A stretch of DNA of 64,000 nucleotides from Minisyncoccota bacterium (GTDB taxonomy: Bacteria; Patescibacteriota; Minisyncoccia; Phycocordibacterales; SW-6-46-9). The notes beneath the pieces were generated by a model. It saw only the letters and a list, made by a program, of their open reading frames with translations. It was not told the origin of the DNA and made no database searches. The number at the start of each line of letters is the position of its first letter. The first letter of the stretch is position 1. The position numbers and the translations under genes were made by a program. Below, piece by piece: positions 2,056 through 17,812 of this stretch. The stretch spans positions 395,526 to 459,525 of the forward strand of contig JBBDRP010000002.1 of NCBI GenBank assembly GCA_040905385.1, in the 5' to 3' direction.

Positions 2056-2205
2056 TGACTACCAAGCGGAGTGAGCGAAACGCAAGTTTACTTGCATGTC
2101 CGAACGGAGCGCCGGGAGGCAGATTGATAAATCTGCTCATCAAACGGAGTGAGCGACATGGTCACTTGTATCCATGTCCGAACGTAGTGCAGAGAGACAA
2201 ATAAA
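2056..2205. repeat. Structured repeat family, locus 1: two tandem ~65-nt units (ACCAAGCGGAGTGAGCGA..hairpin..TGTCCGAACGGAGCG..hairpin)
   Basis: Units at about 2056-2140 and 2141-2205 share the motifs cggagtgagcga and gtccgaacg with a second locus at 17813-17950; the internal hairpins covary between copies (gcaagt/acttgc vs gacatgg/ccatgtc; gcagat/atctgc vs gcagg/cctgc). Confidence 0.55.
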
Positions 2206-2210
2206 TGGCT

Positions 2211-2235
2211 AATATTCGCAGTATTTGCGAATATT
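2211..2235. promoter_or_regulatory. Perfect palindromic operator AATATTCGCA-N5-TGCGAATATT upstream of the promoter of gene 2399..3130
   Basis: 10-bp inverted repeat with 5-bp spacer, centred about 50 bp upstream of the -35; nearly identical copy at 31684..31708. Confidence 0.6.
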
Positions 2236-2269
2236 AAGAGTATACTCGGACAAATGTCCCACCATTTAT

Positions 2270-2297
2270 TTGACAAACATTATACAATATGTACTAT
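2270..2297 (+). promoter_or_regulatory. Sigma70-type promoter (TTGACA-16-TACTAT) for gene 2399..3130
   Basis: Consensus -35 and near-consensus -10 with 16-bp spacer; the whole about 110-bp block is duplicated at 31680-31790. Confidence 0.55.
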
Positions 2298-2398
2298 TAT
2301 AGTCAGAAAGTAATAGATAGATCAAATAATGGTCTTTCAAATTTTAACCAAGAGGACGCAAGATGTACTCCTCTCCAAAGCAAAAAAGGTGAAACCGT

Positions 2399-3130
2399 AT
2401 GAAAATTCTTGTTATCGAAGATACTCAAAAACACCTGCAAGACGCTAAAGAATACGTATCAAATCTTGTGAATTGCTCGGTTCATTATGCAACCACACTC
2501 ACAGAAGCCATGGAATTACTCGAGAAGAATGAGTACGATGCCGTAATTTCTGATGTATTCTTTCCTGCAGACAGTGAGTCTGAGGCAGATACATATGAGA
2601 ATGCGCTGACAGTTTCTAAAAAACTGAGAGAACTCGATGTTTACCACGTGTTTAACACATCCTTGCATCACCATGGTTCTGGCTTCGGGAATTTTTTCAG
2701 TGACGCTAAAATCCTTCAGGATTTTAGTCTTGCTAAGATCATTGAGGTATTTCCTGATGTAAATAGCTGGAATGAAGCCGTAAACAGCATCAGTCTAGTA
2801 TCTTACCCATTCACAATAGGGGTAGTTCTTGAGTCAAATATTAGTGGAGAAGAGGTGGATACGAAGCAGTGGGAAGGAGCTTTCCGTCAAGTTATTTTGG
2901 CTATTGAGGTTCGTCCTATTATTCTAGAAAATCGATTCAAGCTTTCAAAAGCACTTAAAAAAGGAAGAGATGGAAAAGGATACGAAGATCTGAATTCTCT
3001 CGTAGAAAAATACTATGGTGGTCCGATAAAAACTAGTTTCCATACCATTTTTGACTATGGACGTACCACTTCAAATTTAAGAGATACTCCAGACCATTTC
3101 CAGAAAATTTTTAAAAAATACAATGCTTAA
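2399..3130 (+). CDS. Orphan response-regulator receiver-domain protein with uncharacterised C-terminal domain
   Basis: N-terminus MKILVIEDT..DAVISDVFFP resembles a CheY-like receiver (acid pocket E7/D8, putative phospho-Asp in ISDVF); the C-terminal about 120 aa have no recognisable domain; AT-rich gene behind the duplicated operator/promoter cassette. Confidence 0.5.
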   Translation: MKILVIEDTQKHLQDAKEYVSNLVNCSVHYATTLTEAMELLEKNEYDAVISDVFFPADSESEADTYENALTVSKKLRELDVYHVFNTSLHHHGSGFGNFFSDAKILQDFSLAKIIEVFPDVNSWNEAVNSISLVSYPFTIGVVLESNISGEEVDTKQWEGAFRQVILAIEVRPIILENRFKLSKALKKGRDGKGYEDLNSLVEKYYGGPIKTSFHTIFDYGRTTSNLRDTPDHFQKIFKKYNA

Positions 3131-3212
3131 AAATTGGATTGTCTAGACCAGAAGATTTGTGGATGATTTCGTAAGAAATCTGTACACAGATTAAACCAAT
3201 AAATTAAAGGCG

Positions 3213-3240
3213 GCAAGATTGAATCTTGTCGTCTTTTTTC
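3213..3240. terminator. Bidirectional terminator between 2399..3130 and rnr
   Basis: Hairpin caagat-tga-atcttg followed by tcgtctttttt. Confidence 0.5.
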
Positions 3241-3305
3241 ATACCCAAATATTTAGTTTTTAGTCAACCAGCATGGTCAAACGAATAAATGAGGCACAAA
3301 TTTTT

Positions 3306-5276
3306 TTAATCACTTTCTACTAGAGAAAAATCAATCTCCCGATTATCGATGTTGACCTTGGTTAGCTTGACCTTTACTTCATCACCGAGGGTAAAGGTGC
3401 GGCCACTGTCACGACCAACGAGGGCGTAGTTTTCCTTATCCAGCTCGTAGTAGTCATCGTTGAGGGAACGCATTGATACCATGCCATTGGCCAGCGTCTT
3501 CTTCTCTTCGACGTAGAAGCCGCGCTTGGAGATACCACTGATAACGGCCGTAAACTCCTCGCCAATGTGATTCTCCATGTACTCAGCACGCTTGAAGGAG
3601 ATTGAGTCACGCTCGGCATCCATCACCTCACGCTCGCGCTCAGAGGCGTGCTTGGCAGCTGATTGATAGAAGTTGAATTCCTGCGGTGGGACCGGAATAT
3701 CATTCAGGTGCTTGTAGAGCAGGCGATGAACCAGCAGGTCGGGGTAGCGACGAATTGGGGAGGTGAAGTGGGTGTAGTACTCGAAAGCGAGACCGAAGTG
3801 ACCCTTGTTGGTGGTCTCATAAATCGCCTTGTCCATAGTGCGGATTACCTCGGTATTGACGAGGCCTTCTTCGGCCTTACCCTCGGCCTGGTTAAGCAGG
3901 GCGTTAATGTCGCTGTGGGTGATTTCGGCACCTTTCTCTAGCTCGAAGTCGTAACCAAGGGCACGCAGAAAGACTCCAAGCTCAGCAAGCCGGTCGCGGT
4001 CAGGAAGCCCGTGAACACGATAAACAAAGAAGTGACGCTCATCCTCATCCTCGGTCATACGGTGAATTTCCTTGGCAATCTCGCGGTTGGCCAGAAGCAT
4101 GTACTCCTCGACGAGCTCGTGAGTATCCATGTGTTCCTTTTTGGTAATAGACAGCACCGTACCATCATCGGTAATGTCGAACTCGACCTCTTCGCCGTGA
4201 AAGTTGATGGAGCCGTTAGAGAATCGCCGGTTTCGGAAGGTCTTGGCGATGTTATTTAAAATTAGCAGTTCATCAGAGAATTCATCATTTCCTGAATCAA
4301 TCTGTTTCTGCGCCTGTTCGTAGGTGAAGCGCTTGTCTGAGTGGATGATGCCTTTTCCAAACCAGCGATCCAGCACATTTCCTTCTGGAGAAACCGTAAA
4401 TTCAGCCGAGAAGGCCAGGCGATCAAGATTAGGGTTCAGCGAACAGAGATCATTAGAAAGAATCGGTGGTAGCATCGGAATCGTTCGGTCAACGAGGTAA
4501 GCAGAGAAGGAGCGCTTACGGGCCTCGCGATCGATGGCGGTGCCGGGCTGAACAAAGTGGGATACATCGGCGATGTGAACACCGATTTTGTAGTTTCCGT
4601 CCTTCTGCCGCTGAAAGGTGATGGCATCATCAAAGTCCTTGGCGGTTACGGGGTCGATGGTCATCGTGAGGACATCGCGAAAGTCACGCCGCTCGGAGAG
4701 GTCGACGTCGTCCATGCTCCAGTCCTCAAGCTCGGCAGCCTCGGCCATAACATCATCAGGGAAGTCAACTTCGATACCTTTGTCCATCAGAATCGATTTA
4801 ATTTCGACTTCATGATCGCCCTTTGGGCCGAGTACCTCAATAACCTTTCCGGCTGGATTGCGATCCTTGTTAATGTCGCCCCAGTCGGTAATCTCTACTA
4901 GTACCTTGTGACCGTCGGGAATTTCCTCATTCGTACGGACGAAGATGTCCTGGTACATGTGCTTTTTATCCGGCAGTAGGAAGTAGGTGTTGCCGTTTCG
5001 CTGGATAGTACCCACAAACTGTGTGCGAGCCCGGCGAACGACTTCGACAACCTCACCAATCATCAGGTCACCACGGTCATTCTTGATATCCGGTCGAGGC
5101 TTAACTTTTACGGTGTCGCCGTCGTAGGCATTGTTGATGTAGTCGGTCGGGATGACTAGGTCAGCAACATCCTTAACATCCTCTGGGTCGTGGGGAGGGG
5201 TAACGAACCCAACGCCGCTGCCGATGGTGGAGATAACTGTCTCAAATATATCTTCAGAATTTTTTTCTTGTGTCAT
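3306..5276 (-). CDS. rnr: Ribonuclease R (RNB family 3'-5' exoribonuclease with C-terminal S1 domain)
   Basis: 656 aa; cold-shock-like N-terminal domain, central RNB catalytic domain, C-terminal S1-like domain (GEEFTAVISGISKRGFYVEE..GMVSMRSL). Confidence 0.9.
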   Translation of the reverse strand: MTQEKNSEDIFETVISTIGSGVGFVTPPHDPEDVKDVADLVIPTDYINNAYDGDTVKVKPRPDIKNDRGDLMIGEVVEVVRRARTQFVGTIQRNGNTYFLLPDKKHMYQDIFVRTNEEIPDGHKVLVEITDWGDINKDRNPAGKVIEVLGPKGDHEVEIKSILMDKGIEVDFPDDVMAEAAELEDWSMDDVDLSERRDFRDVLTMTIDPVTAKDFDDAITFQRQKDGNYKIGVHIADVSHFVQPGTAIDREARKRSFSAYLVDRTIPMLPPILSNDLCSLNPNLDRLAFSAEFTVSPEGNVLDRWFGKGIIHSDKRFTYEQAQKQIDSGNDEFSDELLILNNIAKTFRNRRFSNGSINFHGEEVEFDITDDGTVLSITKKEHMDTHELVEEYMLLANREIAKEIHRMTEDEDERHFFVYRVHGLPDRDRLAELGVFLRALGYDFELEKGAEITHSDINALLNQAEGKAEEGLVNTEVIRTMDKAIYETTNKGHFGLAFEYYTHFTSPIRRYPDLLVHRLLYKHLNDIPVPPQEFNFYQSAAKHASEREREVMDAERDSISFKRAEYMENHIGEEFTAVISGISKRGFYVEEKKTLANGMVSMRSLNDDYYELDKENYALVGRDSGRTFTLGDEVKVKLTKVNIDNREIDFSLVESD

Positions 5277-5394
5277 ATGTCTATGAGTGTATCACAGTCA
5301 GGTGATTTTATAAGTCGCTTGTATAATATTGACAAATAGACAATATTAGGTAGAATAATAATCAGACTAAATCTTTAATAAAACGGAGAATAAA

Positions 5395-5757
5395 ATGGAA
5401 AAGGAAGTAGCGGTAATACTCACTATTATTGGAGCACTTGCGTATGGAGCAACATTCACTGCCATTCCGGCAATATCATTAATTATGTTTGGGCTGGGTG
5501 TAGTCGTTTCCATATTTGCTGGCCCTGAAGTTTTATATCCTGAAGTCGAGAAAGTTATGAAGATATTTTTTTGGGCCGCACTTGCATCAGTTACGTCCAT
5601 CGTATTATTGTGGATTGATTACTTTGGCGTCACCCAGTATTTCCCACGATCTATGGATTTCTACTTCTATGCCGTCTTTAGCTATGGTTCACTAATTGCT
5701 ATGGGACATTTATTCTATTTTATGATTAAGAAAAAACATACTCATTCTAATGAATAA
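5395..5757 (+). CDS. Hypothetical small membrane protein (3-4 TM)
   Basis: Hydrophobic 120-aa ORF with RBS; followed by a terminator hairpin at about 5779-5808. Confidence 0.4.
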   Translation: MEKEVAVILTIIGALAYGATFTAIPAISLIMFGLGVVVSIFAGPEVLYPEVEKVMKIFFWAALASVTSIVLLWIDYFGVTQYFPRSMDFYFYAVFSYGSLIAMGHLFYFMIKKKHTHSNE

Positions 5758-5883
5758 ATAATTAATTAAAATCTAATAAAACCGTCCCTGTAACTGGGGC
5801 GGTTTTTTATATAGCAGCCTACGCAAAGCTTATAGAGCCTGGTATAGTGTAGATAGAGCCAACCTTCACATAATCCCGATCCC

Positions 5884-6177
5884 ATGGAAACTCTCACCTC
5901 TGTATTCACTGGTGGCTTACTAGTAACATACATCGCATTGATCGCGTATGTCGTGTATCAGTTTGCCGCAACTTGCGCATCCTGTACGTTACGCAATTGT
6001 CTGCATTATATTCTGTCACTATTAACTTTGTTCGCTTTTTTCTGGCTAAGCTCAGGATTGTCCTTAGTACAGGATATTGCGTATCCAGATAAATTCGTTG
6101 CACTCGTCATGCTCACTATCTGTAGCATCATGGCTGGCGCGATTTTTTACATAAAGTATCCACAATTAGAAACCTAA
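5884..6177 (+). CDS. Hypothetical small membrane protein
   Basis: 97-aa hydrophobic ORF, Cys-containing N-terminal region. Confidence 0.35.
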   Translation: METLTSVFTGGLLVTYIALIAYVVYQFAATCASCTLRNCLHYILSLLTLFAFFWLSSGLSLVQDIAYPDKFVALVMLTICSIMAGAIFYIKYPQLET

Positions 6178-6257
6178 ATCCATGCCACTGTTGGTTTAAC
6201 ACCCCAACAGTGGCTTTTTCTTTGCATTATGTTGTATTTCTGCTATTATTTTCCCAT

Positions 6258-6704
6258 ATGTTACGAATAAGACTTTCAAGAGTAGGCCGAAAACACGACC
6301 CATCCTATCGGATGATTGTGACGGAAAAAGGTCGTGGGCCACAAACAGGAAATTATGTTGAGCAGGTTGGTACGTATGATGCTCGCTCAGACGAGCACAA
6401 CCTGAAGGCTGATCGTATTACGCACTGGATTTCAGTGGGTGCGCAGCCAAGTGATACGGTACACAACCTTCTTCTGAAGGCTGGTGTTATCAAGGGTGAG
6501 ACAGTTAATCCGCTGCCAAAGAAAACGCCGATTGTTTCTGAATCTGACCCCGTAAAGGAATCTGAAGATTCCCACGAGGCAGGAGAAGAAGAGGAAGCAG
6601 AAAAAGCTGATGAAGAATCTGATGACGAAGATAACGAAGCCGTGGAAGCTGAGGAAGATAATGAGGACGACGATACTGACGAAGAAGAGGAGGAAAATCA
6701 GTAG
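6258..6704 (+). CDS. rpsP: 30S ribosomal protein S16 with long poly-acidic C-terminal extension
   Basis: MLRIRLSRVGRKHDPSYRMIV..ITHWISVGAQPSDTV is canonical S16; internal ATG at 6258 within ORF 6210..6704; C-terminal about 65 aa are D/E-rich and carry the 41-nt element shared with udg. Confidence 0.85.
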   Translation: MLRIRLSRVGRKHDPSYRMIVTEKGRGPQTGNYVEQVGTYDARSDEHNLKADRITHWISVGAQPSDTVHNLLLKAGVIKGETVNPLPKKTPIVSESDPVKESEDSHEAGEEEEAEKADEESDDEDNEAVEAEEDNEDDDTDEEEEENQ

Positions 6705-6738
6705 AAAGTCGAAAGTCGAAAGTTGAAAGTTGAAAACC
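6704..6738. repeat. Heptamer tandem repeat array (GAAAGTC x2, GAAAGTT x2, GAAAACC)
   Basis: Five 7-nt units starting in the rpsP stop codon and running into the terminator stem. Confidence 0.7.
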
Positions 6739-6756
6739 GCCTAGGGGCGGTTTTTG
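6733..6756 (+). terminator. Rho-independent terminator after rpsP
   Basis: ccgcc-tagg-ggcgg stem followed by TTTTT. Confidence 0.7.
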
Positions 6757-6837
6757 TTTATTTAGAAATGTACCGTATAATGAAACTACAGTTTCGTCGA
6801 AGCTGTGATTAGCAAACCAATCTAGCTGAATCATATT

Positions 6838-7209
6838 ATGGCAGAATCACACGAAGATAAAGATTTTTTAGAATTTACAGTTAAGCATATTGTTGATAAC
6901 CCTGAAGCGGTGAACGTAGATCGAACCGTTGATGAGATGGGGGTACTAATGACACTGGATGTTCACGCTGATGACATGGGAAAGGTGATCGGCCGCAATG
7001 GTAATACTGCCAAGGCGCTACGCACGCTTCTACGGGTCGTGGGAATGAAGAATCAGGCTCGCGTTAACCTCAAGATTCGTGAACCAGAAGACCGAGAGGA
7101 TGCACCCGAAGCACCAGAATCATCTGCTCAAGACGCTGATGAAAAGGATGAAAAAGCGGATGACTCAGATACTTCTGTTGATGATGCGATGGAGGAATTG
7201 AAATCCTAG
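6838..7209 (+). CDS. KH-domain RNA-binding protein (YlqC/UPF0109-like) with acidic C-terminal tail
   Basis: VIGRNGNTAKALRTLL GxxG KH motif; conserved position between rpsP and trmD; C-terminal 45 aa acidic. Confidence 0.75.
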   Translation: MAESHEDKDFLEFTVKHIVDNPEAVNVDRTVDEMGVLMTLDVHADDMGKVIGRNGNTAKALRTLLRVVGMKNQARVNLKIREPEDREDAPEAPESSAQDADEKDEKADDSDTSVDDAMEELKS

Positions 7210-7230
7210 TTTCGAAACTTCATCAATAGT

Positions 7231-7260
7231 AAAAGCCGACCTTATTGGCCGGCTTTTTTA
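7231..7260. terminator. Bidirectional terminator between the KH gene and membrane gene 7242..7691
   Basis: aaaagccgacc-ttat-tggccggctttttt. Confidence 0.6.
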
Positions 7261-7691
7261 TGTTTATTTGCAGATTCTATAATCCTTCTTTTACCGAGCA
7301 TATACCCAATCCACGCACTCATAATTGTACTCGTAAATATTACAACAAGATAGGCTACAGCTAATTCTTCAAAACGTGAGAAGATATCAATAGGTAAGCT
7401 ACCTAGGAGAAATATTCCTAAAGGACTAAATAGTGCATACGTGGCTAAGCTTATACCCACCCATTGCTGATTTCCATCACTACTGACAAGATAAGCGAAT
7501 ACTGCAATGGAGAAAGCCATGATTAGTATAGAGATTACCGAAATTATAACAGCGATCGTCGTCATCTGTATACTGGTGATTTGAAATAAATCAGGAAATG
7601 CGAATACTTTAACAATTGCAGTGATTAACCAGATAAGAATTATAACTATTGCTGGATAAAAAGAGCCACTATGAGATTTTGAAGTTGACAT
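7242..7691 (-). CDS. Hypothetical 4-TM membrane protein (paralog A; divergent from trmD)
   Basis: 149-aa hydrophobic ORF; its upstream promoter region is about 85% identical to that of 8723..9142. Confidence 0.5.
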   Translation of the reverse strand: MSTSKSHSGSFYPAIVIILIWLITAIVKVFAFPDLFQITSIQMTTIAVIISVISILIMAFSIAVFAYLVSSDGNQQWVGISLATYALFSPLGIFLLGSLPIDIFSRFEELAVAYLVVIFTSTIMSAWIGYMLGKRRIIESANKHKKAGQ

Positions 7692-7733
7692 ACAACCTCC
7701 GGATTTAAGAGTTAAAGGTAGTTTCTGTCTTTA

Positions 7734-7762
7734 TTAATACCACTAAAATGCTATACTTGCAA
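7734..7762 (-). promoter_or_regulatory. Sigma70-type promoter for 7242..7691 (TTGCAA-17-TATTAA on the minus strand) with conserved spacer
   Basis: The same promoter, with a near-identical 17-bp spacer (ccacNaaaatgNtatac), recurs at 9185..9213. Confidence 0.5.
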
Positions 7763-7837
7763 GGTACGTGAATTCTCTACAAAATATAGAGGTTCAATCA
7801 TAATTCCTAATTCTTAAATTCTCTATTCAAAATTTCT

Positions 7838-7870
7838 ATGAAATTTTCAATAATTACAATATTTCCCTAA
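7838..7870 (+). repeat. Partial duplication of the trmD 5' end (atgaaattttcaataattacaatatttccctaa = MKFSIITIFP*)
   Basis: About 24 of 27 nt identical to the true trmD start region at 7944-7976 (aattcacaataattacaatatttcctgg), followed by a hairpin at 7899-7921. Confidence 0.55.
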
Positions 7871-7943
7871 AACAAATTTCTTTGAAATTTGTTCGGGCGA
7901 CGAAATCTTTTAGATTTCGTTTAGCCCAGACTAAAATCAATCT

Positions 7944-8642
7944 ATGCAATTCACAATAATTACAATATTTCCTGGCATGATCAAAGCCTATACCGACGAG
8001 TCGATCCTTGGTCGGGCGCAGGCAGATGGCCACATCCAGGTCGACATCATCGATCCGCGTGACTTTGCTGAAGACAAGCACAACAGTGTGGACGCACCGC
8101 CGTATGGTGGTGGACCAGGGATGGTCATGCAGGCCGAGCCGGTGCTACGCGCTGTTGAGAAAGCGCGTAGCGAGTCGAAAGTAGAAAGTAAAAAGTCGAA
8201 AGTCGTTGTATTATCGGCGCAAGGAAAGCAGTTCGATCGTCAGATGGCAAAGGGTACGGCAACAAGTATTGAGCATCTTATTTTGATCTGCGGGAGGTAC
8301 GAAGGGATTGACCGGCGAGTAATTGAAGCGCTGGAGGCCGAGGAAGTTTCGGTAGGGCCGTACATCCTTACTGGCGGTGAGTTGCCAGCACTGATCATGG
8401 TCGATGCGACCGCTCGGTTTGTATCAGGAGTACTTGGCAATGAGGAGTCCTTGGAGGATGAGCGTAGTGCCGGCACACACGTGTATACCCGACCAGAGAC
8501 CATTACCTATGAAGGCCAGGAGTATACGGTTCCGGAGGTACTAATGAGCGGTCACCACGCCGAGATCGAGGAGTGGCGAGCCCAGCAAGCCCCTCCTTCG
8601 CACAAGGCTTCGGAAGGGCGAAGGAAGAATCAGGAATCATGA
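7944..8642 (+). CDS. trmD: tRNA (guanine37-N1)-methyltransferase
   Basis: GGGPGMVMQAEPV, ICGRYEGIDRRV and ILTGGELPALIMVDA motifs; carries an in-frame heptamer-repeat insert encoding SESKVESKKSKV. Confidence 0.9.
   Translation: MQFTIITIFPGMIKAYTDESILGRAQADGHIQVDIIDPRDFAEDKHNSVDAPPYGGGPGMVMQAEPVLRAVEKARSESKVESKKSKVVVLSAQGKQFDRQMAKGTATSIEHLILICGRYEGIDRRVIEALEAEEVSVGPYILTGGELPALIMVDATARFVSGVLGNEESLEDERSAGTHVYTRPETITYEGQEYTVPEVLMSGHHAEIEEWRAQQAPPSHKASEGRRKNQES
8177..8204. repeat. Heptamer repeat array inside the trmD CDS (GAAAGTA GAAAGTA AAAAGTC GAAAGTC)
   Basis: Four in-frame 7-nt units of the GAAAGTN family encoding KVESKKSKV. Confidence 0.7.
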
Positions 8643-8722
8643 ATCCCGCTGAAAGCGAGGCTCCCCGAAGGCGGCAAGAAGAAAAGCCGTCTCGAAATGT
8701 ATCGAAACGACTTTAGTTACTA

Positions 8723-9142
8723 TTATTTTTGGAGATTATTTCCAATCCACATAGAGATAATCCAACCTGAAATTGCGTAAAGATTAAATATCAATCCTGG
8801 TAGGTAGTTGGCACCTACACTTGGTAATGTAAAAAGTGCTGCTGGAACCAAAAAGCTGACAACTATAAGATTAATAATTGCAGTTCGAGGTCTTTCTTTG
8901 CATTTCCAAAATCCGATCATTAGAAATGGAAAAGATGCAGTAAGAAGAGAAAAGCTTACAACCACTGGATTCTCTATACTTACGTTAAGAAGTGTGGAAA
9001 TTAATGACTCTTCTACTCCGGTAAGTAGCTGTACTAGAATAAGAAAGAATCCAATCATAAGCCAAGCTACTAGTATTACTGCAGGAACAAGAAGTATCTT
9101 TTCAACGGGTATCAACTGATTTTGTTTCTCGAAAGAAGTCAT
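8723..9142 (-). CDS. Hypothetical 4-TM membrane protein (paralog B; divergent from mnmA)
   Basis: 139-aa hydrophobic ORF; promoter region conserved with paralog A. Confidence 0.5.
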   Translation of the reverse strand: MTSFEKQNQLIPVEKILLVPAVILVAWLMIGFFLILVQLLTGVEESLISTLLNVSIENPVVVSFSLLTASFPFLMIGFWKCKERPRTAIINLIVVSFLVPAALFTLPSVGANYLPGLIFNLYAISGWIISMWIGNNLQK

Positions 9143-9184
9143 AAGACCTCCTTTTTTAAGAGTGAAAGATTATATCTGTATTTA

Positions 9185-9213
9185 TTAATACCACGAAAAT
9201 GATATACTCGCAA
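9185..9213 (-). promoter_or_regulatory. Sigma70-type promoter for 8723..9142 (TTGCGA-17-TATTAA on the minus strand)
   Basis: tttattaataccacgaaaatgatatactcgcaaggta matches the 7731-7765 block. Confidence 0.5.
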
Positions 9214-9278
9214 GGTAAGTAGGGTTACTTGCATTGGTAATAAAACACCTTCATGATTCCTCATTCTTATCTCTTAAT

Positions 9279-9311
9279 TCTTTCTACTTTAGACTTTTAA
9301 CTTTCTACTAA
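9279..9311. repeat. Heptamer repeat array (reverse orientation: TAGTAGAAAGTTAAAAGTCTAAAGTAGAAAGA) 5 nt upstream of the mnmA start
   Basis: Reverse complement of GAAAGTN-family units directly abutting the ATG at 9316. Confidence 0.6.
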
Positions 9312-9315
9312 TTTT

Positions 9316-10440
9316 ATGCTACCTAACTACATACAAAATATAGAAGATAAAGAAAACACGCACGTCTTCGTGGCAATGAGCGGCGGGGTGGACTCGTCTG
9401 TAGCCGCTTACCTCTTGAAGGAAGCTGGCTTTCAGGTGACTGGCTGTTTTATGACGGTCTGGCAGCCACCATTTCTTGACTGCTCGATGGAGAGCGAGCG
9501 ACAGGATGCGATGCGCGTGGCTGCTGAGCTCGAGATTGACTTTCAGACGGTGGATCTGGCTGAGGAGTACAAGACTCGTGTGGTCGACTACATGATTGCC
9601 GAGTACAAGGCGGGGCGGACACCTAACCCAGATGTGATGTGCAACGGTGAGATTAAATTTGGTGCTTTTTTTGACTGGGCGATGGATGAGGGAGCAGACT
9701 ATGTGGCGACTGGACATTATGCGCGGCTTCGCAAGTCGAAAGTAGAAAGTGGAAAGTCAAAGGTTGAATTACTAGCCGGAGTTGATGAGAAAAAGGATCA
9801 GACGTACTTTCTGTGGCAGGTACCAACCGATCGACTAGAAAAAACGATGTTTCCCATCGGTCATCTAGAGAAGTCACAAGTACGCGAAATCGCGACCGAA
9901 GCTCAGCTGCCAGTGGCAGACAAAAAAGACAGCCAGGGTCTGTGCTTTCTTGGCCAAGTTGACATGCCGACATTCCTCGCCGAGTTCACCGACCTGAAAC
10001 CCGGAGACGTGCTTAATGAAGCCGGCGAGGTCATCGGTACCCATGATGGGGCGGTGGTCTATACCATCGGCCAGCGACATGGTTTTAATATCCAGAAAAA
10101 GATGCCAGACAGTGGTCCGTGGTATGTCACCGACAAAGATACCGAAGCTAATACCATTACCGTCACCGAGGACAATACCATCGGTGGCGCCACCTTCAAC
10201 TGTCGTGAGATGAAGCTTACAAAGACAAACTGGATCAACGGCCAGCCCGAGGGTCGGCTGCAGGCACGAATCCGCTATAATCAAACGTTGCAGCCGTGTG
10301 AAGTTATGGAGAAGGACGGAGAAGTCGTTGTCACCTTTGATGAACCACTGCGGGCAGTGGCTGTGGGGCAGTCGTGTGTGGTTTATGATGGAGAGCACTG
10401 TCTGGGGGGAGGAATCATTGACATAATAAATATAGTGTAG
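9316..10440 (+). CDS. mnmA: tRNA-specific 2-thiouridylase
   Basis: PP-loop VAMSGGVDSSVAAYLL, catalytic Cys motifs; in-frame heptamer insert encoding KSKVESGKSKV. Confidence 0.9.
   Translation: MLPNYIQNIEDKENTHVFVAMSGGVDSSVAAYLLKEAGFQVTGCFMTVWQPPFLDCSMESERQDAMRVAAELEIDFQTVDLAEEYKTRVVDYMIAEYKAGRTPNPDVMCNGEIKFGAFFDWAMDEGADYVATGHYARLRKSKVESGKSKVELLAGVDEKKDQTYFLWQVPTDRLEKTMFPIGHLEKSQVREIATEAQLPVADKKDSQGLCFLGQVDMPTFLAEFTDLKPGDVLNEAGEVIGTHDGAVVYTIGQRHGFNIQKKMPDSGPWYVTDKDTEANTITVTEDNTIGGATFNCREMKLTKTNWINGQPEGRLQARIRYNQTLQPCEVMEKDGEVVVTFDEPLRAVAVGQSCVVYDGEHCLGGGIIDIINIV
9738..9765. repeat. Heptamer repeat array inside the mnmA CDS (GAAAGTA GAAAGTG GAAAGTC AAAGGTT)
   Basis: Same family as the arrays at 1932, 6704, 8177 and 17259. 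Confidence 0.7.
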
Positions 10441-10495
10441 TAATATTATTTTATAGCATTCTTTAAATAAAACAATAAGAAACGGAGGAACTACT

Positions 10496-11113
10496 ATGAA
10501 GAAAGTTATTTTCTTCTTAACACTCATTGTCACTGCAGCTACTGCTCCAGAGGCAACGGCACAGAGAGTTTTTAATTTCGAGTACGTCACGATGGGGAGT
10601 GGTGAAAGTGTAGTGGCTGATGGCATGTACTTCACAGCCACTGCATCACATGGTAATAATCTCTTAACCGCAGCTTTTACGCCAATAAGTGCAGAAGCCA
10701 GGTATCTAAGTAGTGATGTATTTGGAATCAACGGCCTCTATCTTGGCCCGTCAGGTGGCTTCATGAAAGGAGTTCCGTGGTTTGGTCCAATTGCAACGTA
10801 TTCGCCGATATCAGCGATAAGCTTGACCGCCTGGACTGGTGTCTCAGCTGGGGATGCTGCTCTCGGTGTTTTTGATCTAAAAAATCCAGAAATGGCTTTT
10901 CTGCAGCTAGATGCGATGATAAATTTTACAGAGAATCTTTATGTAGGGTTTAGTTATCTTGAATTTTCTGGTGACCATTATCTGCCATATGCTGGCGGTG
11001 AAATGTCATTAGGTAGTGCGATGGCAATCTTTGGTTCAATTACGCTTCCTGTGAAAGACGGTAAATTCGATGATCCCATGTTCTTTCTAGGCTTTCGTTT
11101 GGGATTTAATTAA
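10496..11113 (+). CDS. Hypothetical secreted protein
   Basis: Signal peptide MKKVIFFLTLIVTAATAPEATAQ; Gly/Ala-rich beta-type composition; terminator hairpin at about 11126-11159. Confidence 0.5.
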   Translation: MKKVIFFLTLIVTAATAPEATAQRVFNFEYVTMGSGESVVADGMYFTATASHGNNLLTAAFTPISAEARYLSSDVFGINGLYLGPSGGFMKGVPWFGPIATYSPISAISLTAWTGVSAGDAALGVFDLKNPEMAFLQLDAMINFTENLYVGFSYLEFSGDHYLPYAGGEMSLGSAMAIFGSITLPVKDGKFDDPMFFLGFRLGFN

Positions 11114-11196
11114 TTTTTTTTAACAAAGACACCTTGGCTTCACAGCTCTGGTGTCTTTTCATCTATATGTGGTGTATGCAGATAAAATGTACTTTT

Positions 11197-11228
11197 AACT
11201 TTACAGACCTTTGACTTTAGACTCTTTG
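11197..11228. repeat. Heptamer-family repeat (reverse orientation: ..GAGTCTAAAGTCAAAGGTCTGTAAAGTT) in the leader of 11250..12089
   Basis: Reverse complement of GAAAGTN-like units immediately upstream of the ATG at 11250. Confidence 0.5.
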
Positions 11229-11249
11229 TTCGTGATACAATTTATCTAT

Positions 11250-12089
11250 ATGAGTAAACGAATTATTGTTGAAAAGTATGACGGTACTAAGGAGCCGTTT
11301 GATGCAGAAAAGCTGCGCGAGTCGCTTGAGGAGTCTCAGACTCCGGAAGATCTGATTGATGATATTATTGCTACGATCGAGGCTGAGGTGGATGAGCAGA
11401 CGACGACGAAGGTTATCTACACACGAGCTTTCGATCTTCTGAAGGAGAAACGCCATTCGTACGCTGCCCGGTACTCATTACGTCAGGCATTAGCGGATCT
11501 AGGACCGACCGGGTATCCGTTCGAGCAGTTTGTAGCGCACATTTTTGAGGCCCAGGGATTTAAAACGACTGTTGGAGAGGTAATGCAGGGCTCATGCACG
11601 ACACATGAGATTGATGTAGTAGCAGAAAATGATGAGAAGCTGATTCTGGTAGAGGCAAAATTTCACAATGATCGGACAATTAAATCAGCACTGCAAACAG
11701 CCCTTTATGTTAGGGCTCGGTTTGATGATCTGCAGGATAACCATCATGACAAGTTTAAGGATGACGGAAAAAAGATTGAGCGCTGGCTGGTTACAAACAC
11801 AAAGTTCTCCAAGCAGGCTATTGAGTACGGCGAGTGTGCTGGTCTGCATATGGTTGGTTGGGGGCATCCAAAGCGGGGAAATCTAGAACATCTCATCACC
11901 GAGGCTGATCTACAGCCAGTCACCGCCCTAACAACACTATCTAATAGTCATAAGAGAGATCTTACGAAGCGAGGATTAGTTCTTTGTAAGAATATGCGTA
12001 ACGAGACGGACAAGCTTAAAGAGTTAGGTTTCAGTGATGAAAAAATTAAGGAGGTGTTGAATGAGGTCAATCATCTTTGTCAGTTATAA
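11250..12089 (+). CDS. ATP-cone domain fused to Mrr-like (PD-(D/E)XK) restriction endonuclease domain
   Basis: N-terminus RIIVEKYDGTKEPFDAEKLRESL..YSLRQ fits the ATP-cone pattern; GYPFEQFVAHIFEAQGF..THEIDVVAE..LILVEAKF..WLVTNTKFSKQA fits the Mrr catalytic domain; internal ATG chosen within ORF 11211. Confidence 0.6.
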   Translation: MSKRIIVEKYDGTKEPFDAEKLRESLEESQTPEDLIDDIIATIEAEVDEQTTTKVIYTRAFDLLKEKRHSYAARYSLRQALADLGPTGYPFEQFVAHIFEAQGFKTTVGEVMQGSCTTHEIDVVAENDEKLILVEAKFHNDRTIKSALQTALYVRARFDDLQDNHHDKFKDDGKKIERWLVTNTKFSKQAIEYGECAGLHMVGWGHPKRGNLEHLITEADLQPVTALTTLSNSHKRDLTKRGLVLCKNMRNETDKLKELGFSDEKIKEVLNEVNHLCQL

Positions 12090-12230
12090 TTGATTTATCA
12101 TTCATGGTATTGAATCGGTCACAGGTATACTAAAGTTGAACTATTTTTCACTTTTCACCCGGGCATAAAATCGTAGATTTCATTTTTGCGAAGAAAAATG
12201 TTTAACCGGGTAAACTTTTAACTAATTATC

Positions 12231-13025
12231 ATGTCTCAGTATTATCGCGTTCCGCGCACAAAATATAAGTTTAATCCCGAAAAGCCAGAGAGCTTCGAGC
12301 TTAGTCGGTCCAAAATTGATCTGTTTGTTGAGTGTCCACGTTGTTTTTATGTTGATATGCGGCTGGGAGTAAAGCGTGTTCCAGGTTATCCATTTACGCT
12401 AAACAATGCCGTTGATGAGCTAATGAAGCGTGAGTTTGATGAGTACCGAAAGGATGGCAAGACGCACCCTATCATGGAGGAGTATGGAATTGATGCGGTT
12501 CCATTTCAGCATGATGACCTTGAGGACTGGCGGCATCCGTTTACTGGTATTCGACGTAAACATGAAGCGACTGGATTTACTGTCTACGGTGCACCGGATG
12601 ACATCTGGAAGAATCCAGAAGGCCGGCTGGCGGTCGTGGATTACAAGGCCACTTCCAAGCAGGAGAAACTGAGCTTATCGGCCGACTGGCAGGGTGCCTG
12701 GAAGCGGCAGATGGAGGTGTACCAGTGGCTCTTGCGGGGGCAGGACTTTGATGTATCCGATCGCGGTTACTTTGTGTATGCAAACGCGGACAAGTCGCTG
12801 GCAGGGCTAAACGGATCGCTGCAGTTTGATCTGCAGATTCTGCCGTACGATGGCAGTGATGACTGGATTGATGAGACAATAGTTGCTATTGAGGAATGCT
12901 TGATGAGTGACGAGGTTCCACCGGCTGATGCCGAGTGTGACTACTGCACGTATCGAGAGGTCGCCAGCGAAGTCATCCAGAAAGCGGTTGAGGATGAGAA
13001 GCCGGATCAGGAGCTTCCATTTTAA
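12231..13025 (+). CDS. Cas4/RecB-like PD-(D/E)XK nuclease with Cys cluster (stand-alone, no CRISPR)
   Basis: VVDYKAT ((D/E)xK) and QMEVYQWLL (QxxxY) motifs; CPRC near the N-terminus and CDYC near the C-terminus suggest an Fe-S cluster. Confidence 0.55.
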   Translation: MSQYYRVPRTKYKFNPEKPESFELSRSKIDLFVECPRCFYVDMRLGVKRVPGYPFTLNNAVDELMKREFDEYRKDGKTHPIMEEYGIDAVPFQHDDLEDWRHPFTGIRRKHEATGFTVYGAPDDIWKNPEGRLAVVDYKATSKQEKLSLSADWQGAWKRQMEVYQWLLRGQDFDVSDRGYFVYANADKSLAGLNGSLQFDLQILPYDGSDDWIDETIVAIEECLMSDEVPPADAECDYCTYREVASEVIQKAVEDEKPDQELPF

Positions 13026-13027
13026 GT

Positions 13028-13288
13028 ATGTCTACAACGTTTTCAGATGCAGTTCTGGAATATGTTGCCAAAATACCAGCCGGTGAGGTGCGAACCTACG
13101 CCGAGGTCGCGGCGGCCTGCGCATCTCCGTTAGCATCACGAGCGGTAGGGTCGATTATGGCTAAAAATTTTAATCCTCAGGTTCCATGTCACCGGGTGAT
13201 TCGATCCGACGGTACGGTCGGAGACTATAATCGCGGTGGATCAGCGGCCAAGCGGAAGATTTTAGAGCGCGAAGGTGTTATGCTTTAG
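13028..13288 (+). CDS. ogt: Short methylated-DNA-protein-cysteine methyltransferase DNA-binding-domain protein (Ogt/ATL-like)
   Basis: VPCHRVI active-site motif in an 86-aa single-domain protein. Confidence 0.7.
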   Translation: MSTTFSDAVLEYVAKIPAGEVRTYAEVAAACASPLASRAVGSIMAKNFNPQVPCHRVIRSDGTVGDYNRGGSAAKRKILEREGVML

Positions 13289-13300
13289 GCGTCCAGGAAT

Positions 13301-13324
13301 CTAGGCTTTAGGCCTTTAGTAATT
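13301..13324. repeat. Octamer repeats in reverse orientation (CTAGGCTT TAGGCCTT TAGTAATT)
   Basis: TAGG-phased 8-mers, complementary orientation of the CCTA array 20 bp downstream. Confidence 0.5.
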
Positions 13325-13343
13325 CAATTTCATAGACTTTAAG

Positions 13344-13391
13344 CCTAGTAACCTAAATTCCTAGCAACCTAACTTCCTAGTAACCTAGACC
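13344..13391. repeat. Octamer tandem array CCTAGTAA CCTAAATT CCTAGCAA CCTAACTT CCTAGTAA CCTAGACC ending at the pcm start codon
   Basis: Six phased 8-nt units CCTARNNN ending at the base before the ATG at 13392; a sister array lies at 27662-27701. Confidence 0.7.
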
Positions 13392-14039
13392 ATGAATACT
13401 ACTGATATTTTTGCCGACAACTGGAAATCACACAATGACCTCGTCGATCGTCTTAAAGATGAGACGGGGGTACTGGAGACGCCGCGTATAGAGAGAGCCT
13501 TCAGAGAGATAGACCGCCGTGACTTTGTGCGTGATATGTATGATGTCGAGGCTTATGAAGACTATCCTATTCCGATTGGACAGGAGCAGACGATTTCGCA
13601 ACCTACGACGGTGGTCTACATGCTTGAGCTACTGTCACCACAAGAAGGTGATACGATTCTTGATGTTGGCTGTGGTTCTGGCTGGACGACAGCGCTGCTT
13701 GGAGAGATTGTTGGTCGACATGGTCGAGTGGTGGGCATGGAGATAATCGAGGAGCTGGCTGAATTTGGACAGAAGAATCTGGCTCGTTACGAGCTTCCGC
13801 AAGCTGAGATTCGTCATGGCAATCCACTCAAGGAAAAGCAGCCAGAAGCGCCGTTTTCGCGTATTCTGGTCTCGGCCGGAACTAATCATGTACCGAAAGC
13901 CTTAACCGACCAGCTGGCTGTAGGTGGAGTGATGGTGATTCCGATTGATGAGTCATTAGTGCAAGTTAAAAAGAAGTCTGATGATGAGCTGCTCCAGAAG
14001 GAGGTACCAGGCTTTGTTTTTGTACCGCTTCAGGAGTAA
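13392..14039 (+). CDS. pcm: Protein-L-isoaspartate O-methyltransferase
   Basis: TISQPTTVVYMLELL and ILDVGCGSGWTTALL SAM-binding motifs. Confidence 0.85.
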   Translation: MNTTDIFADNWKSHNDLVDRLKDETGVLETPRIERAFREIDRRDFVRDMYDVEAYEDYPIPIGQEQTISQPTTVVYMLELLSPQEGDTILDVGCGSGWTTALLGEIVGRHGRVVGMEIIEELAEFGQKNLARYELPQAEIRHGNPLKEKQPEAPFSRILVSAGTNHVPKALTDQLAVGGVMVIPIDESLVQVKKKSDDELLQKEVPGFVFVPLQE

Positions 14040-14044
14040 AGATT

Positions 14045-14722
14045 ATGAGCAACAAAGATAAAACTGCGGCATTAGAGGCGCTAAAGGACGAGGTGGTTGC
14101 CTTGGAAGCGTCGCCGCTGTATACGTACCGTCAGGAGCACGGTTATCTACCGGTGCTGGGTGAGGGAAGTCACGATGCTGATATTATGTTCATCGGTGAG
14201 GCTCCCGGAGAGAGCGAGGCCAAGACCGGTCGGCCATTTTGCGGACGAAGTGGGAAGCTTCTGGATGAGTTTTTGGAGCATATTAATCTTGATCGTGCGG
14301 ATGTGTACATCACCAATGTGCTGAAGGATCGCCCGCCAGAGAATCGTGATCCGCAAACGGACGAGATTGAGATTTATACGCCTTTTTTACGCCGGCAGAT
14401 CTCAATCATCCAGCCGAAGGTGATTGCTACGCTAGGTCGTTTCTCGATGGAGTTTATTGCCGATGAGTACGGTATCGAGCTGGATGGTACGATTACCCAG
14501 GTACGGGGTAAGATTTACGAGATAGACCCCGGTACCACGTCGTCTGACCCCGTAGAGGAATCAGAAAATTCCCACGAGGCAGGTGACGACGGCTACGGGG
14601 CAGGGGAGGATGGCCAGACGATTACCTTTATCCCGCTGTTTCATCCGGCCGTAGCGTTGTATGATGGTTCCAAGCGCGATGTGCTGAAGGAGGATTTTGA
14701 AACATTGGCCGACTTCACATAA
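14045..14722 (+). CDS. udg: Uracil-DNA glycosylase, family 4
   Basis: GEGSHDADIMFIGEAPGESEAKTGRPFCGRSGKLL and FIPLFHPA motifs; in-frame insert SSDPVEESENSHEAGDDGYGAGEDGQT before the HPA motif. Confidence 0.8.
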   Translation: MSNKDKTAALEALKDEVVALEASPLYTYRQEHGYLPVLGEGSHDADIMFIGEAPGESEAKTGRPFCGRSGKLLDEFLEHINLDRADVYITNVLKDRPPENRDPQTDEIEIYTPFLRRQISIIQPKVIATLGRFSMEFIADEYGIELDGTITQVRGKIYEIDPGTTSSDPVEESENSHEAGDDGYGAGEDGQTITFIPLFHPAVALYDGSKRDVLKEDFETLADFT

Positions 14723-14832
14723 ACGCTATAATAAATTGGGTGTGAAAAGCAAATACATCCAACGACTTGAATGAGCACCCGAAATCTTTTTTTTCTTGCT
14801 TGCAAGACAAAAGAACGGTTGTGTGAATTTAT

Positions 14833-14862
14833 GTCCGAATATTGCATGTAATATTCCTGGAC
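14833..14862. promoter_or_regulatory. 30-bp palindrome gtccGAATATTgcatgtAATATTCctggac upstream of pepF
   Basis: 7-bp inverted AATATT-containing half-sites with 6-bp spacer, flanked by gtcc/ggac; about 50 bp upstream of the ATG at 14912. Confidence 0.4.
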
Positions 14863-14911: not shown

Positions 14912-16699
14912 ATGAATACAAATGAGATTAAAACCAAGTGGGACCTGTCACTTTTTTATGAAGACGACTCGTCTAATAATGAGGCAGGAGATCCGTCTGA
15001 GGCAATTCAGGCTGATGTGGCATCGGCCAGAGAGGCGTACGAAGGATTTGCCGACACGTACCGAGCGGATGAGTCATACCTAGAAGACCCAAAGGCACTA
15101 AAGGGGGCACTAGAGGAGCTGGAGTACCTGGGCGGAAAAAAGAACCTGTCTCGACCACTCTACTATTTGGCGTACCGACGTAGTCTTAATTCAGCCGATC
15201 AAGAGGCCGAGGCAATGGAGAACAAGCTGTCGCAGGAGTATACCAAGCTCGGCAATCTTCTGACCTTTTTCGATCTCAAACTGGGGAAGGTATCTAAAGC
15301 GAAGCAGCAGGAGTTTCTGGCTTCTGAGGAGCTGGCCCATTATCGCAAGTATCTCCAGTGGTTTTTCAAGACAGCTCAGTACCAGCTGGATGAATCAACC
15401 GAGAATACCCTGTCACTAACAAGTCTCCCACGATTTGGAATGTGGGTAGATGGGGTGCAGAAGGTGCTGAGTCAGAAGACGGTGGAGTGGAAAGGTGAAG
15501 AGCTGCCACTGCCGGAGGCGATGAACAAGATTCAGGATTTGATCACTGACGATCGCCGGAAGCTACACAACCTCTGCATAGAGAAGGTCAAGGAAGTAAA
15601 GGAGTTTTCCGAAAGTGAGATTAATGCGGTGGTGACCAACAAGAAAATTGTCGATGAGATGCGGGGTTACGAAAGCCCGTATCAGGCCACGGTGCTTGGC
15701 TATGAAAATACACCAGAAGAGGTGGAGACGCTGGTAAATACTGTTACCGATAATTTTGATGTTGCTCATGATTTTTATGATATCAAGGCGGAGATACTGG
15801 ATGTCGATAAGCTTTCTTATGCTGATCGGCAGGCATCGGTTGGGAATATGGATCGAGAGTTTGATTATCAAAGAAGCGTAGAGCTGGCACATGAAGCCAT
15901 TAGTGGAATGGATGCAGATTTCGCTGCTGTATTTGAACGGCTTGTCACCGGAGGGCAGGTGGATGTGTATCCAAAGAAGGGCAAGCAGGGTGGTGCCTTT
16001 TGTTCCGGAGCTCAGTATCTACCAACTCTGCTTTTTTTGAACCATGTTGATAATTACGACTCACTTAAGACGTTTGTTCATGAGATGGGACATGCTATTC
16101 ATACTGAAATGTCTAAGGAGCGAACTCCGCTATATCAAGAATATACAACCTCCACGGCCGAGACAGCTAGTACATTGTTCGAGAAGGTCTTCTTTAATTA
16201 TTTGTACCCGCAGCTAACAGATGAAGAGAAGGTGATTGCCCTTCATGACAAGATTAACGGCAAGGTATCGACTATTTTCCGTCAGGTTGCCTGCTTTAAC
16301 TTTGAAAAGGATTTACATGAAGGCATTCGTGAGAAAGGAAGCCTACCACATACGGAGATTGCCAAGCTGATGAATCGGCATATGCAGGCGTATCTCGGTG
16401 ATCGGTTTGAGCTTACCGACGATGATGGTTACTTCTTCATCAGCTGGCCGCATATTCGTAACTCATTCTACGTATACAGCTACGCGTACGGAGATCTTGT
16501 TAGTAGTGCAATGATGGAAAAGCTGGATGATGATCCTGACTACACCCAGGAGATCAAGCAGTTCCTGTTGGCTGGAAGCTCGAAAAGCCCGCAGGAGATC
16601 TTTGCAGATATTGGTATCGACACCACAACACCGGAAGTCTTCGAGACCGGCATTCAGGCCGTGCGAGACGATATCGAGGAATTAAGAAAGCTTATCTAG
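14912..16699 (+). CDS. pepF: Oligoendopeptidase F (M3B family)
   Basis: HEMGHAIH zinc motif, 595 aa. Confidence 0.85.
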   Translation: MNTNEIKTKWDLSLFYEDDSSNNEAGDPSEAIQADVASAREAYEGFADTYRADESYLEDPKALKGALEELEYLGGKKNLSRPLYYLAYRRSLNSADQEAEAMENKLSQEYTKLGNLLTFFDLKLGKVSKAKQQEFLASEELAHYRKYLQWFFKTAQYQLDESTENTLSLTSLPRFGMWVDGVQKVLSQKTVEWKGEELPLPEAMNKIQDLITDDRRKLHNLCIEKVKEVKEFSESEINAVVTNKKIVDEMRGYESPYQATVLGYENTPEEVETLVNTVTDNFDVAHDFYDIKAEILDVDKLSYADRQASVGNMDREFDYQRSVELAHEAISGMDADFAAVFERLVTGGQVDVYPKKGKQGGAFCSGAQYLPTLLFLNHVDNYDSLKTFVHEMGHAIHTEMSKERTPLYQEYTTSTAETASTLFEKVFFNYLYPQLTDEEKVIALHDKINGKVSTIFRQVACFNFEKDLHEGIREKGSLPHTEIAKLMNRHMQAYLGDRFELTDDDGYFFISWPHIRNSFYVYSYAYGDLVSSAMMEKLDDDPDYTQEIKQFLLAGSSKSPQEIFADIGIDTTTPEVFETGIQAVRDDIEELRKLI

Positions 16700-17270: not shown

Positions 17271-17288
17271 AGTAGAAAGTCAAAAGTT
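17259..17288. repeat. Heptamer repeat array (GAAAGTC TATAAAGTA GAAAGTC AAAAGTT) spanning the stop codon of 16701..17270
   Basis: GAAAGTN family; followed by GAGTGAGTGAAACG, which resembles the start of the structured repeat units. Confidence 0.6.
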
Positions 17289-17456
17289 GAGTGAGTGAAA
17301 CGAAGGAAATCCAGCCCTAGCGTGCTGGGGCTGGATAAATGGGGAAATTTAAGGTGAGTTACTTTACAATACTGTATTTATTGTGTATTATAATAATCAG
17401 AAGCACCAAAGTTACTTAAACAATAATCCAAACTAATCAAACCAGAGAGGTTTGTT

Positions 17457-17693: not shown

Positions 17694-17812
17694 ATCTATT
17701 TTTGATCCCGTTGTCTATCTAGGCAGCGGGATTTCTTTTATGTACGTGCTGTTACCCCCCCTAGCTAATAGTATTTAGCTAATGGGAACATCCGATGTTC
17801 ACATTATGTACT

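Follow-up and report, generated by a model that had tools for sequence, protein, structure and literature searches.

An in-frame palindromic insertion in a uracil-DNA glycosylase gene and its shared core with the acidic tail of ribosomal protein S16

How did two genes of unrelated function, rpsP and udg, come to carry nearly the same short in-frame segment? Both lie in a stretch of 64,000 nt from the genome of a Minisyncoccota bacterium (contig JBBDRP010000002.1), referred to here as the window. The rpsP gene (6258–6704, + strand; Pfam PF00886, E = 1.3e-16) encodes ribosomal protein S16, a protein of 148 aa with a 53-aa acidic C-terminal tail. The udg gene (14045–14722, + strand; Pfam PF03167, E = 1.4e-29; PDB relatives 4zbx and 1ui0) encodes a family-4 uracil-DNA glycosylase (UDG) of 225 aa. 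The best explanation for the match is that a short tract was copied from one of these coding regions to the other, and the larger insertion in udg that holds one copy looks like a known mutational type, a templated or palindromic in-frame insertion, and not like a new mechanism.

The segment shared by rpsP and udg

A DNA pattern search with the 41-mer, allowing up to three mismatches, located it at exactly two places in the window, 6543–6583 (no mismatches) and 14543–14583 (three mismatches). No match was found in 100 dinucleotide-preserving shuffles, and the chance expectation is 0. Repeat finding (family D13) extended the pair without gaps to 47 nt at 89% identity (6543–6589 and 14543–14589), giving 38/41 identical positions over the shorter match and 42/47 over the extended one. 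Each copy lies on the + strand and keeps the reading frame of its host gene. The 41-mer encodes SDPVKESEDSHEAG(EE) in rpsP and SDPVEESENSHEAG(DD) in udg, while the translated 47-nt segments read SDPVKESEDSHEAGEE and SDPVEESENSHEAGDD, respectively. One of the three differences is synonymous (TCT/TCA) and two are non-synonymous (K/E and D/N). The first-pass annotation had reported this 41-nt near-identity, with its three differences, as an in-frame match between two unrelated proteins, and both statements hold: the similarity is far beyond chance, a second assembler agrees, and the proteins belong to different Pfam families (Ribosomal_S16 and UDG). The two segments share descent.

The start positions of the copies are exactly 8000 nt apart. 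Two Logan contigs of run SRR27977661, produced by another assembler, correspond to window positions 2097–12154 (L009) and 12126–14837 (L001) and are both 100% identical to it, so that neither the sequence nor the 8000-nt spacing is an artefact of the window or of one assembler. The distance is treated as a coincidence, though a genuine property of the genome.

No third copy was found in the window at the DNA or peptide level by blastn-short or tblastn. The copy-number search at the DNA level covered the window, and about 720 kb of this genome lie outside it. Both peptide variants and the open reverse frame, joined into one query, were run against 5.8e9 proteins, which include the UDG of this metagenome-assembled genome (MAG), and gave only two word-sharing candidates, one of which, the S16 cluster P0121, reached E <= 10. 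An exhaustive phmmer search of 1.84e9 representatives with the 30-aa insert returned two matches, both of them unrelated tandem-repeat proteins with repeat-inflated scores. Among species-representative genomes, the pattern GAANATTCCCACGAGGCAGG gave three chance matches in unrelated taxa; since the two known copies are not among them, this MAG lies outside that collection. The pattern TCTGACCCCGTANAGGAATC was found in three JGI metagenome contigs, representing one unrelated intergenic sequence in which the match stops after 20–24 nt, and viral contigs scanned with both halves of the module gave nothing. Rfam matched only two tRNAs over the whole window and nothing at the rpsP or udg locus. The open reading frames (ORFs) of the window that were scanned include no transposase, RAYT (Y1 transposase) or reverse transcriptase, only a XerC/D-type recombinase (45745–46701).

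The udg insertion and its palindromic structure

The copy in udg lies within 26 residues, PGTTSSDPVEESENSHEAGDDGYGAG, that are missing from all 14 of the closest UDG orthologs aligned (about 200 aa, 57–82% identical). They are encoded by 78 nt at 14527–14604 (+ strand), bounds that are certain to within 1–2 nt, and the site is empty in the DNA of four relatives (L002, L003, L018 and L020), which show a 78-nt gap. The ancestral junction approximates GAG ATC GAA / GAG GAC, and no target-site duplication is present at the udg junction (GAGATAGA/.../GGAGGAT). None of nine further UDG homologs aligned, longer ones included, has an insertion at the same position. The protein is identical to P0001, annotated as a protein of a Candidatus Paceibacterota MAG, and its assignment to family 4 is supported by the match to PDB 4zbx (E = 7.5e-44) and by GEAPG and HPA motifs that are invariant in the ortholog alignment. 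The insertion adjoins the conserved FIPLFHPA motif, just upstream of it. An insertion before this motif had been proposed from the sequence alone, and the alignments bear out its position, its frame and its restriction to this lineage; its length is 78 nt rather than the 41 nt supposed, and it is palindromic.

The length of the insertion is a multiple of 3, it is free of stop codons, and the motifs and fold of UDG are intact. The HMMER alignment to PDB is broken at this point, with query residues 158 and 193 placed against chain residues 148 and 157. An AlphaFold2 model shows a confident fold (predicted template modelling score 0.84), with values of the predicted local distance difference test below 50 for residues 167–188. 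Because these residues sit between strands 158–160 and 193–198 of the model, the insert is predicted to form a disordered surface loop at the tip of a beta-hairpin, a structurally permissive position. The GC content of the insert is 63%, against 46% in the window (17 points higher), and two of its six frames are open, the used one and one on the minus strand.

The insertion as a whole is a nested quasi-palindrome, of which the shared 47-mer (14543–14589, + strand) is only the core. The core is flanked by a left outer arm, CCCCGGTACCACGTCG (14527–14542, +), and by a right outer arm, CGGCTACGGGGCAGG (14590–14604, +). On the minus strand, the 78-nt insert folds as RNA at −43.6 kcal/mol (z = −4.0, with 0/200 shuffles as good) and as DNA at −20.7 kcal/mol (z = −4.6), while sense-strand folds are indistinguishable from those of shuffles (RNA z = −1.2 and −1.6). 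The 47-nt segment of rpsP itself contains an inner hairpin, GGAATC-TGAA-GATTCC, enclosed by CCCCGT/ACGAGG. In the middle arms of the insert, CGTCGTC pairs in inverted orientation with GACGACG (14585–14591), and a GTAG tetranucleotide lies beside the stem in the udg copy.

The outer arms have identifiable relationships to nearby sequence. The right arm carries CTACGGGG, the reverse complement of the left end of the core in its udg version (CCCCGTAG) and not in its rpsP version (CCCCGTAA). Set in inverted form against the left end of the core, CTGACCCCGTAG in udg, it matches at 11/12 positions (P = 0.0012, shuffle test). The left arm includes CCCCGGTACC, which resembles the inverted native udg sequence GGTACGGGG (14500–14508); its match to the inverted native flanks, 9/10 with one gap, is marginal (P = 0.09, shuffle test). 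The two outer arms have only CCCCG in common when one is inverted (P = 0.47, shuffle test), and terminal inverted repeats are therefore poor.

A further inverted relationship connects the donor boundary with udg sequence outside the insertion. Within the core, ACCCCGTA is the reverse complement of TACGGGGT in native udg (14502–14509), and the sequence at the left boundary in rpsP, AATCTGACCCCGTA (6541–6554), matches the inverted native udg tract TACGGGGTAAGATT (14502–14515, +; codons for VRGKI) at 13/14 positions (P = 0.0013, shuffle test). This tract lies 12 nt upstream of the insertion site and is a candidate nucleating microhomology. Its VRG codons are conserved in relatives, which indicates that the native VRGK(I) tract predates the insertion. 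At the putative switch points, GAGGA is a possible return microhomology, and the exact junctions share only 1–2 nt.

Direction of copying and origin of the insertion

Acidic C-terminal tails were found in 17/17 aligned S16 orthologs of the clade. The tail of the window protein, 53 aa after PIVSE, compares with 42–55 aa in relatives (81 in one) and has no evident extra 14 aa, and none of the 17 orthologs carries SDPVKESEDSHEAG. After the conserved NPLPKK.PIVSE, the window protein continues as SESDPVKESEDSHEAGE, and two orthologs continue as SEEPEEESVEADEAGED (P0126) and SEEPEEDEGESEEEAGE (P0125). The anchors EP/DP, ES(E) and EAGE are common to the three tails in the same register. In the rpsP DNA, the contig encoding P0126 (L015) aligns with the segment ungapped at 23/32 nt with an offset of one codon, the contig encoding P0125 (L016) has GAATCTGAAGA in common with it, and L002 has GAAGA..C.CA.GAGGCAG. 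Judged from these alignments, S16 acidic tails of similar length are ancestral in the clade. The full 148-aa S16 has no exact database record; it is recorded from a downstream start as P0121, which is 100% identical in a Logan contig.

Since the tails appear ancestral, are not longer in this genome than in relatives, and are in register with the segment, rpsP is the likely donor (47 nt at 6543–6589, +), and copying from rpsP to udg is moderately supported. Polarising the three differences by rpsP orthologs makes two of them derived in udg (T>A and G>A) and one derived in rpsP (G>A): TCT and the G-first codons are ancestral in rpsP, which makes the two udg states derived, while the G at the third site is kept in udg and also in the CTAC of the right arm, which makes the rpsP state derived. 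The first-pass annotation was right that the segment begins the acidic C-terminal extension of S16. Its description of an insert shared by both genes is not supported for S16, where no insert can be demonstrated, the tail being of ordinary length and in register with those of orthologs.

We hold it somewhat probable that the udg insert arose as a one-off templated (ectopic) insertion by microhomology and template switching; the template-switch mechanism, the order of switches and the neutrality of the product are what we infer. During replication or break repair in an ancestor of the Paceibacterota lineage, a nascent DNA end in udg would have switched template to the start of the acidic-tail coding region of rpsP, which lies 8 kb upstream with strand and orientation unchanged; about 47 nt would have been copied there before the end went back to udg. 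The pre-existing 13/14-nt inverted microhomology between the native udg tract and the left boundary of the donor probably favoured the switch, as the quasi-palindromic hairpin of the donor itself probably did. Further short switches, made during that event or afterwards and directed to complementary or nascent strands, would have added the inverted outer arms and produced the 78-nt nested palindrome. The product may have survived in frame, through selection, because the sense strand has no stop-free frame other than that of the donor and because the loop is permissive: a multiple of 3 in length, it would have added an acidic disordered loop at a hairpin tip to a member of an acidic proteome.

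Several features are those of templated insertions: the donor is identifiable, retained and intact, the recipient site is empty in relatives, and the insert is a mosaic in which nearby sequence recurs in inverted form. Most of the documented ectopic templated insertions are from eukaryotes, and bacterial ones are rarely reported. No bacterial example was found in the literature searched, and we know of none from the reduced genomes of the Candidate Phyla Radiation (CPR). Template switching that creates or extends hairpins is an established microbial mutational mechanism (PMC8794818, PMC5941160, PMC7202029). The udg locus resembles quasi-palindrome template switching, fork stalling and template switching (FoSTeS) and microhomology-mediated break-induced replication (MMBIR) in its retained donor, its mosaic of inverted copies, the candidate microhomology at or near the junction and the hairpin product (PMC8794818, PMC5941160, PMC7202029). 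It differs from quasi-palindrome switching in its donor, which is 8 kb distant and directly oriented; classical switches span tens to hundreds of bases.

The first-pass annotation had attributed the match to a mini-insertion or a gene-conversion-like process and had held that this is not a described mechanism. The copying of a short tract between coding regions stands. Like ectopic gene conversion, it carries a short tract non-reciprocally from one locus of a chromosome to another, but conversion needs a homologous tract already in the recipient, and the empty udg site of relatives means that the event was an insertion and not a conversion. The statement on mechanism was mistaken, given the in-frame palindromic insertions described as Rickettsia palindromic elements (RPEs) and other MITEs (miniature transposable elements with inverted repeats; PMC10969869) and given hairpin-making template switching (PMC8794818, PMC5941160, PMC7202029). 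Diversity-generating retroelements, which are common in CPR, likewise have a template and variable repeat pair within a few kb; they are rejected here, as the mismatches are not adenine-specific (A>G, T>A, G>A) and no reverse transcriptase is present in the window. The tract also falls far below the usual length of a template repeat, and the genes concerned are housekeeping genes.

A number of observations weigh against a templated insertion copied from rpsP. A distance of 8 kb is long for classical intra-fork template switching. No single simple series of switches yields the observed arrangement: a fold-back from the nascent end and a lagging-strand switch via the inverted microhomology were both tried, and neither gives the exact order of segments. 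The match of the left arm to native sequence is, as noted, marginal. Alignment scores of the rpsP tails are within codon-shuffle expectation (best P = 0.09), and for this reason the claim that the rpsP copy is native was lowered to positional evidence; in addition, the closest S16 relatives (P0122–P0124) are without the EAGE anchor. The whole insert, with its high GC content and strong palindromy, also fits a small mobile element, further copies of which could lie, in intergenic sequence or in stop-containing frames, in the roughly 720 kb outside the DNA search.

Such an element is the main rival to templated insertion, though rather unlikely. On this explanation, a low-copy palindromic mobile element, similar to RPEs, MITEs or repetitive extragenic palindromes (REPs), would be present as a full 78-nt copy in udg and as a truncated or decayed copy of 41–47 nt in the tail of rpsP. 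The entire udg insert is indeed an imperfect palindrome (fold z = −4.0 to −4.6) with a GC content well above that of the window, and short dispersed repeats of other kinds occur in the genome, among them the heptamer arrays within trmD and mnmA. As with the RPEs of Rickettsia, the palindrome forms a hairpin and lies in frame in a housekeeping gene, in udg only, where its one open sense frame adds a surface peptide compatible with the fold (PMC10969869). A stable hairpin and a permissive in-frame site are present, but terminal inverted repeats are poor, there is no target-site duplication, and no multi-copy family was found in the window or the databases searched. RPEs are about 100–150 bp long and occur in tens to hundreds of copies, whereas only two copies are present in these 64 kb, of 78 and 41–47 nt and 8 kb apart, one of them native-looking; none was found in the other 56 kb or in the protein, genome, metagenome and viral searches. 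There are no conserved termini, and the host belongs to another phylum (CPR). In rpsP the copy has neither arm and aligns with the native tails of orthologs, the window has no transposase or RAYT, and the right arm is already accounted for as an inverted copy of the core itself. The udg copy also resembles REPs and bacterial interspersed mosaic elements (BIMEs), as a short imperfect palindrome with GTAG next to its stem. A REP/RAYT system was rejected, REPs being extragenic and highly repeated palindromes of 20–40 nt, while the two copies here are intragenic and no RAYT/Y1 transposase is encoded in the window.

The reverse direction of copying is distinctly unlikely. It would have the 78-nt palindrome arise first in udg, de novo or from an unknown source, and then pass to rpsP as a gene-conversion patch over the start of the tail. 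Two observations speak for it, the weak score support for a native rpsP copy and a 21-nt gap in the DNA of the three closest rpsP relatives, which falls opposite the left part of the segment, TCTGACCCCGTAAAGGAATCT, itself flanked by a direct repeat of GAATCTGA. However, the rpsP tail has not been lengthened, the EP/DP, ESE and EAGE anchors are in the same register in P0125 and P0126, and outgroup polarity makes the rpsP state ancestral at 2/3 of the differences. Copying from udg to rpsP would also leave the udg core without a source.

It is very unlikely that the segment is a shared element kept for its function, either as an RNA hairpin (regulatory, or an antisense target) or as a peptide motif that binds a partner. 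All three differences between the copies fall outside the main stems (in a bulge, a loop and a loop-closing pair), although with three differences this avoidance of stems does not reach significance (about 0.09). The minus strand gives the stronger hairpin, but the sense-strand RNA folds are no better than shuffles, Rfam has no match, and the peptide occurs in no other protein searched and is predicted to be disordered in udg. The acidic, low-complexity nature of both contexts and the odd spacing of exactly 8000 nt might suggest an artefact (of assembly or from a chimera) or a chance similarity of low-complexity acidic coding sequence, but this is essentially refuted by the 0/100 shuffle matches, the composition of the 41-mer (not low-complexity, containing CCCCGT and CCCACGAGGCAGG), the identity of two assemblers over both loci and the interval between them, and an insert that is an exact, stop-free multiple of 3 and leaves the UDG motifs and fold undamaged.

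Genomic setting and wider meaning

The proteome encoded by the window is strongly acidic, with a median isoelectric point of 4.78 over 43 ORFs and 16.7% D+E against 11.2% K+R. Long acidic C-terminal tails are present on S16, L9, KhpA and DnaK. These features suggest a halophile-type (salt-in) CPR bacterium with an acid-tolerant proteome; the MAG of Parcubacteria group bacterium SW_6_46_9 is among the relatives listed.

Among about 20 orthologs compared with the syntenic contigs L002 and L003, window-specific insertions of at least 4 aa are rare, namely the 26 aa of UDG, 7 aa (SSNNEAG) in pepF, 4 aa in trmD and one DDFV. The insertion in pepF (M3 peptidase), 370 nt downstream of that in udg, is a clean one of 21 nt and 7 codons (14968–14988). 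Its end reads GAGGCAGG, and it has the 11-mer GAGGCAGGAGA in common with the rpsP copy. That it represents a third partial copy is unproven, as it could equally be a near-tandem duplication of pepF's own CCGTCTGAGGCA.

Period-7 arrays of the form (NNAAAGT)x4–5 occur in 5–6 copies between 1.9 and 17.3 kb, with 0 expected in shuffles. They are located at 1931–1961, 6696–6740, 8169–8206 and 9730–9767 (+), at 9276–9313 (−) and at 17256–17294, and another is found in L018 (1155–1185, −). Variable loops of trmD (SKVESKKSKV) and mnmA (SKVESGKSKV) each hold one of the arrays, both in frame and with a common codon phase, at places where the sequence of two relatives is unrelated. Further arrays lie directly 3′ of the rplI and rpsP stop codons, before terminator hairpins, and in L002 rpsP is followed by a comparable A-rich spacer of period 7. 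At their 3′ ends, rplI (L9) and rpsP (S16) are 73% identical over 96 nt without gaps (1890–1985 and 6662–6757), a stretch that runs from the last part of the acidic tail through the stop codon and the heptamer array to the hairpin of the terminator (AAAACCGCC...GGCGGTTTTT).

A resemblance of the in-frame (NNAAAGT)x4 arrays in trmD and mnmA to the one just 3′ of the rpsP stop codon hints at recurrence, as does the GAGGCAGG end of the pepF insert. A wider proposal would be that this CPR lineage has an active process, or a low-copy mini-element, that moves sequences of 30–80 nt into the loops of housekeeping genes, with the 3′ end of rpsP, a highly expressed gene, as a recurrent donor (its tail and the heptamer array that follows), possibly via RNA or an R-loop. 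We consider this proposal quite doubtful; the arrays raise recurrent short-tract copying in the lineage as a possibility without establishing it.

Other repeats and features were seen elsewhere in the window. Two ORFs for small membrane proteins on the minus strand, at 7242–7691 (between KhpA and trmD) and 8723–9142 (between trmD and mnmA), are missing from the syntenic L002. They have in common an 88-nt, 80%-identical promoter, 5′UTR and start region (7682–7769 and 9133–9220), although they are dissimilar in coding sequence. A 70-nt repeat, 66–87% identical, forms two tandem pairs in intergenic DNA (2053–2200 and 17810–17951), with internal hairpins (GCAAG...CTTGC) and no Rfam match. A 125-nt direct repeat, 75% identical (2206–2330 and 31679–31803), holds a near-perfect 27-nt palindrome, TAATATTCGCAGTATTTGCGAATATTA. 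Its copies lie upstream of a response-regulator-like ORF and an ankyrin-repeat ORF, for which it may be a shared operator. From position 1 to about 44 kb the window has a positive GC skew, which switches sign at about 46–48 kb, beside a XerC/D-type tyrosine recombinase gene (45745–46701); this could be the region of the replication terminus (dif) or a mere gene-strand switch. A perfect 29-nt tandem duplication of TATTTTTTATACGATATTCGTAATGTAAG (x2, 53862–53919) lies between two minus-strand genes and overlaps the 3′ end of rnhB (RNase HII, 53897–54550).

The udg insertion offers a clean natural case in which a protein acquires a surface loop in a single step, through the copying of part of an unrelated gene, with the donor, the recipient, the empty ancestral site and the junction features all directly readable. 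As a single event, it would serve mainly as a caution that short in-frame repeats in unrelated genes need no new mechanism. If the process proves recurrent across the genome, it would provide a tractable model for the innovation of loops and tails in streamlined, acid-proteome (probably halophilic) bacteria.

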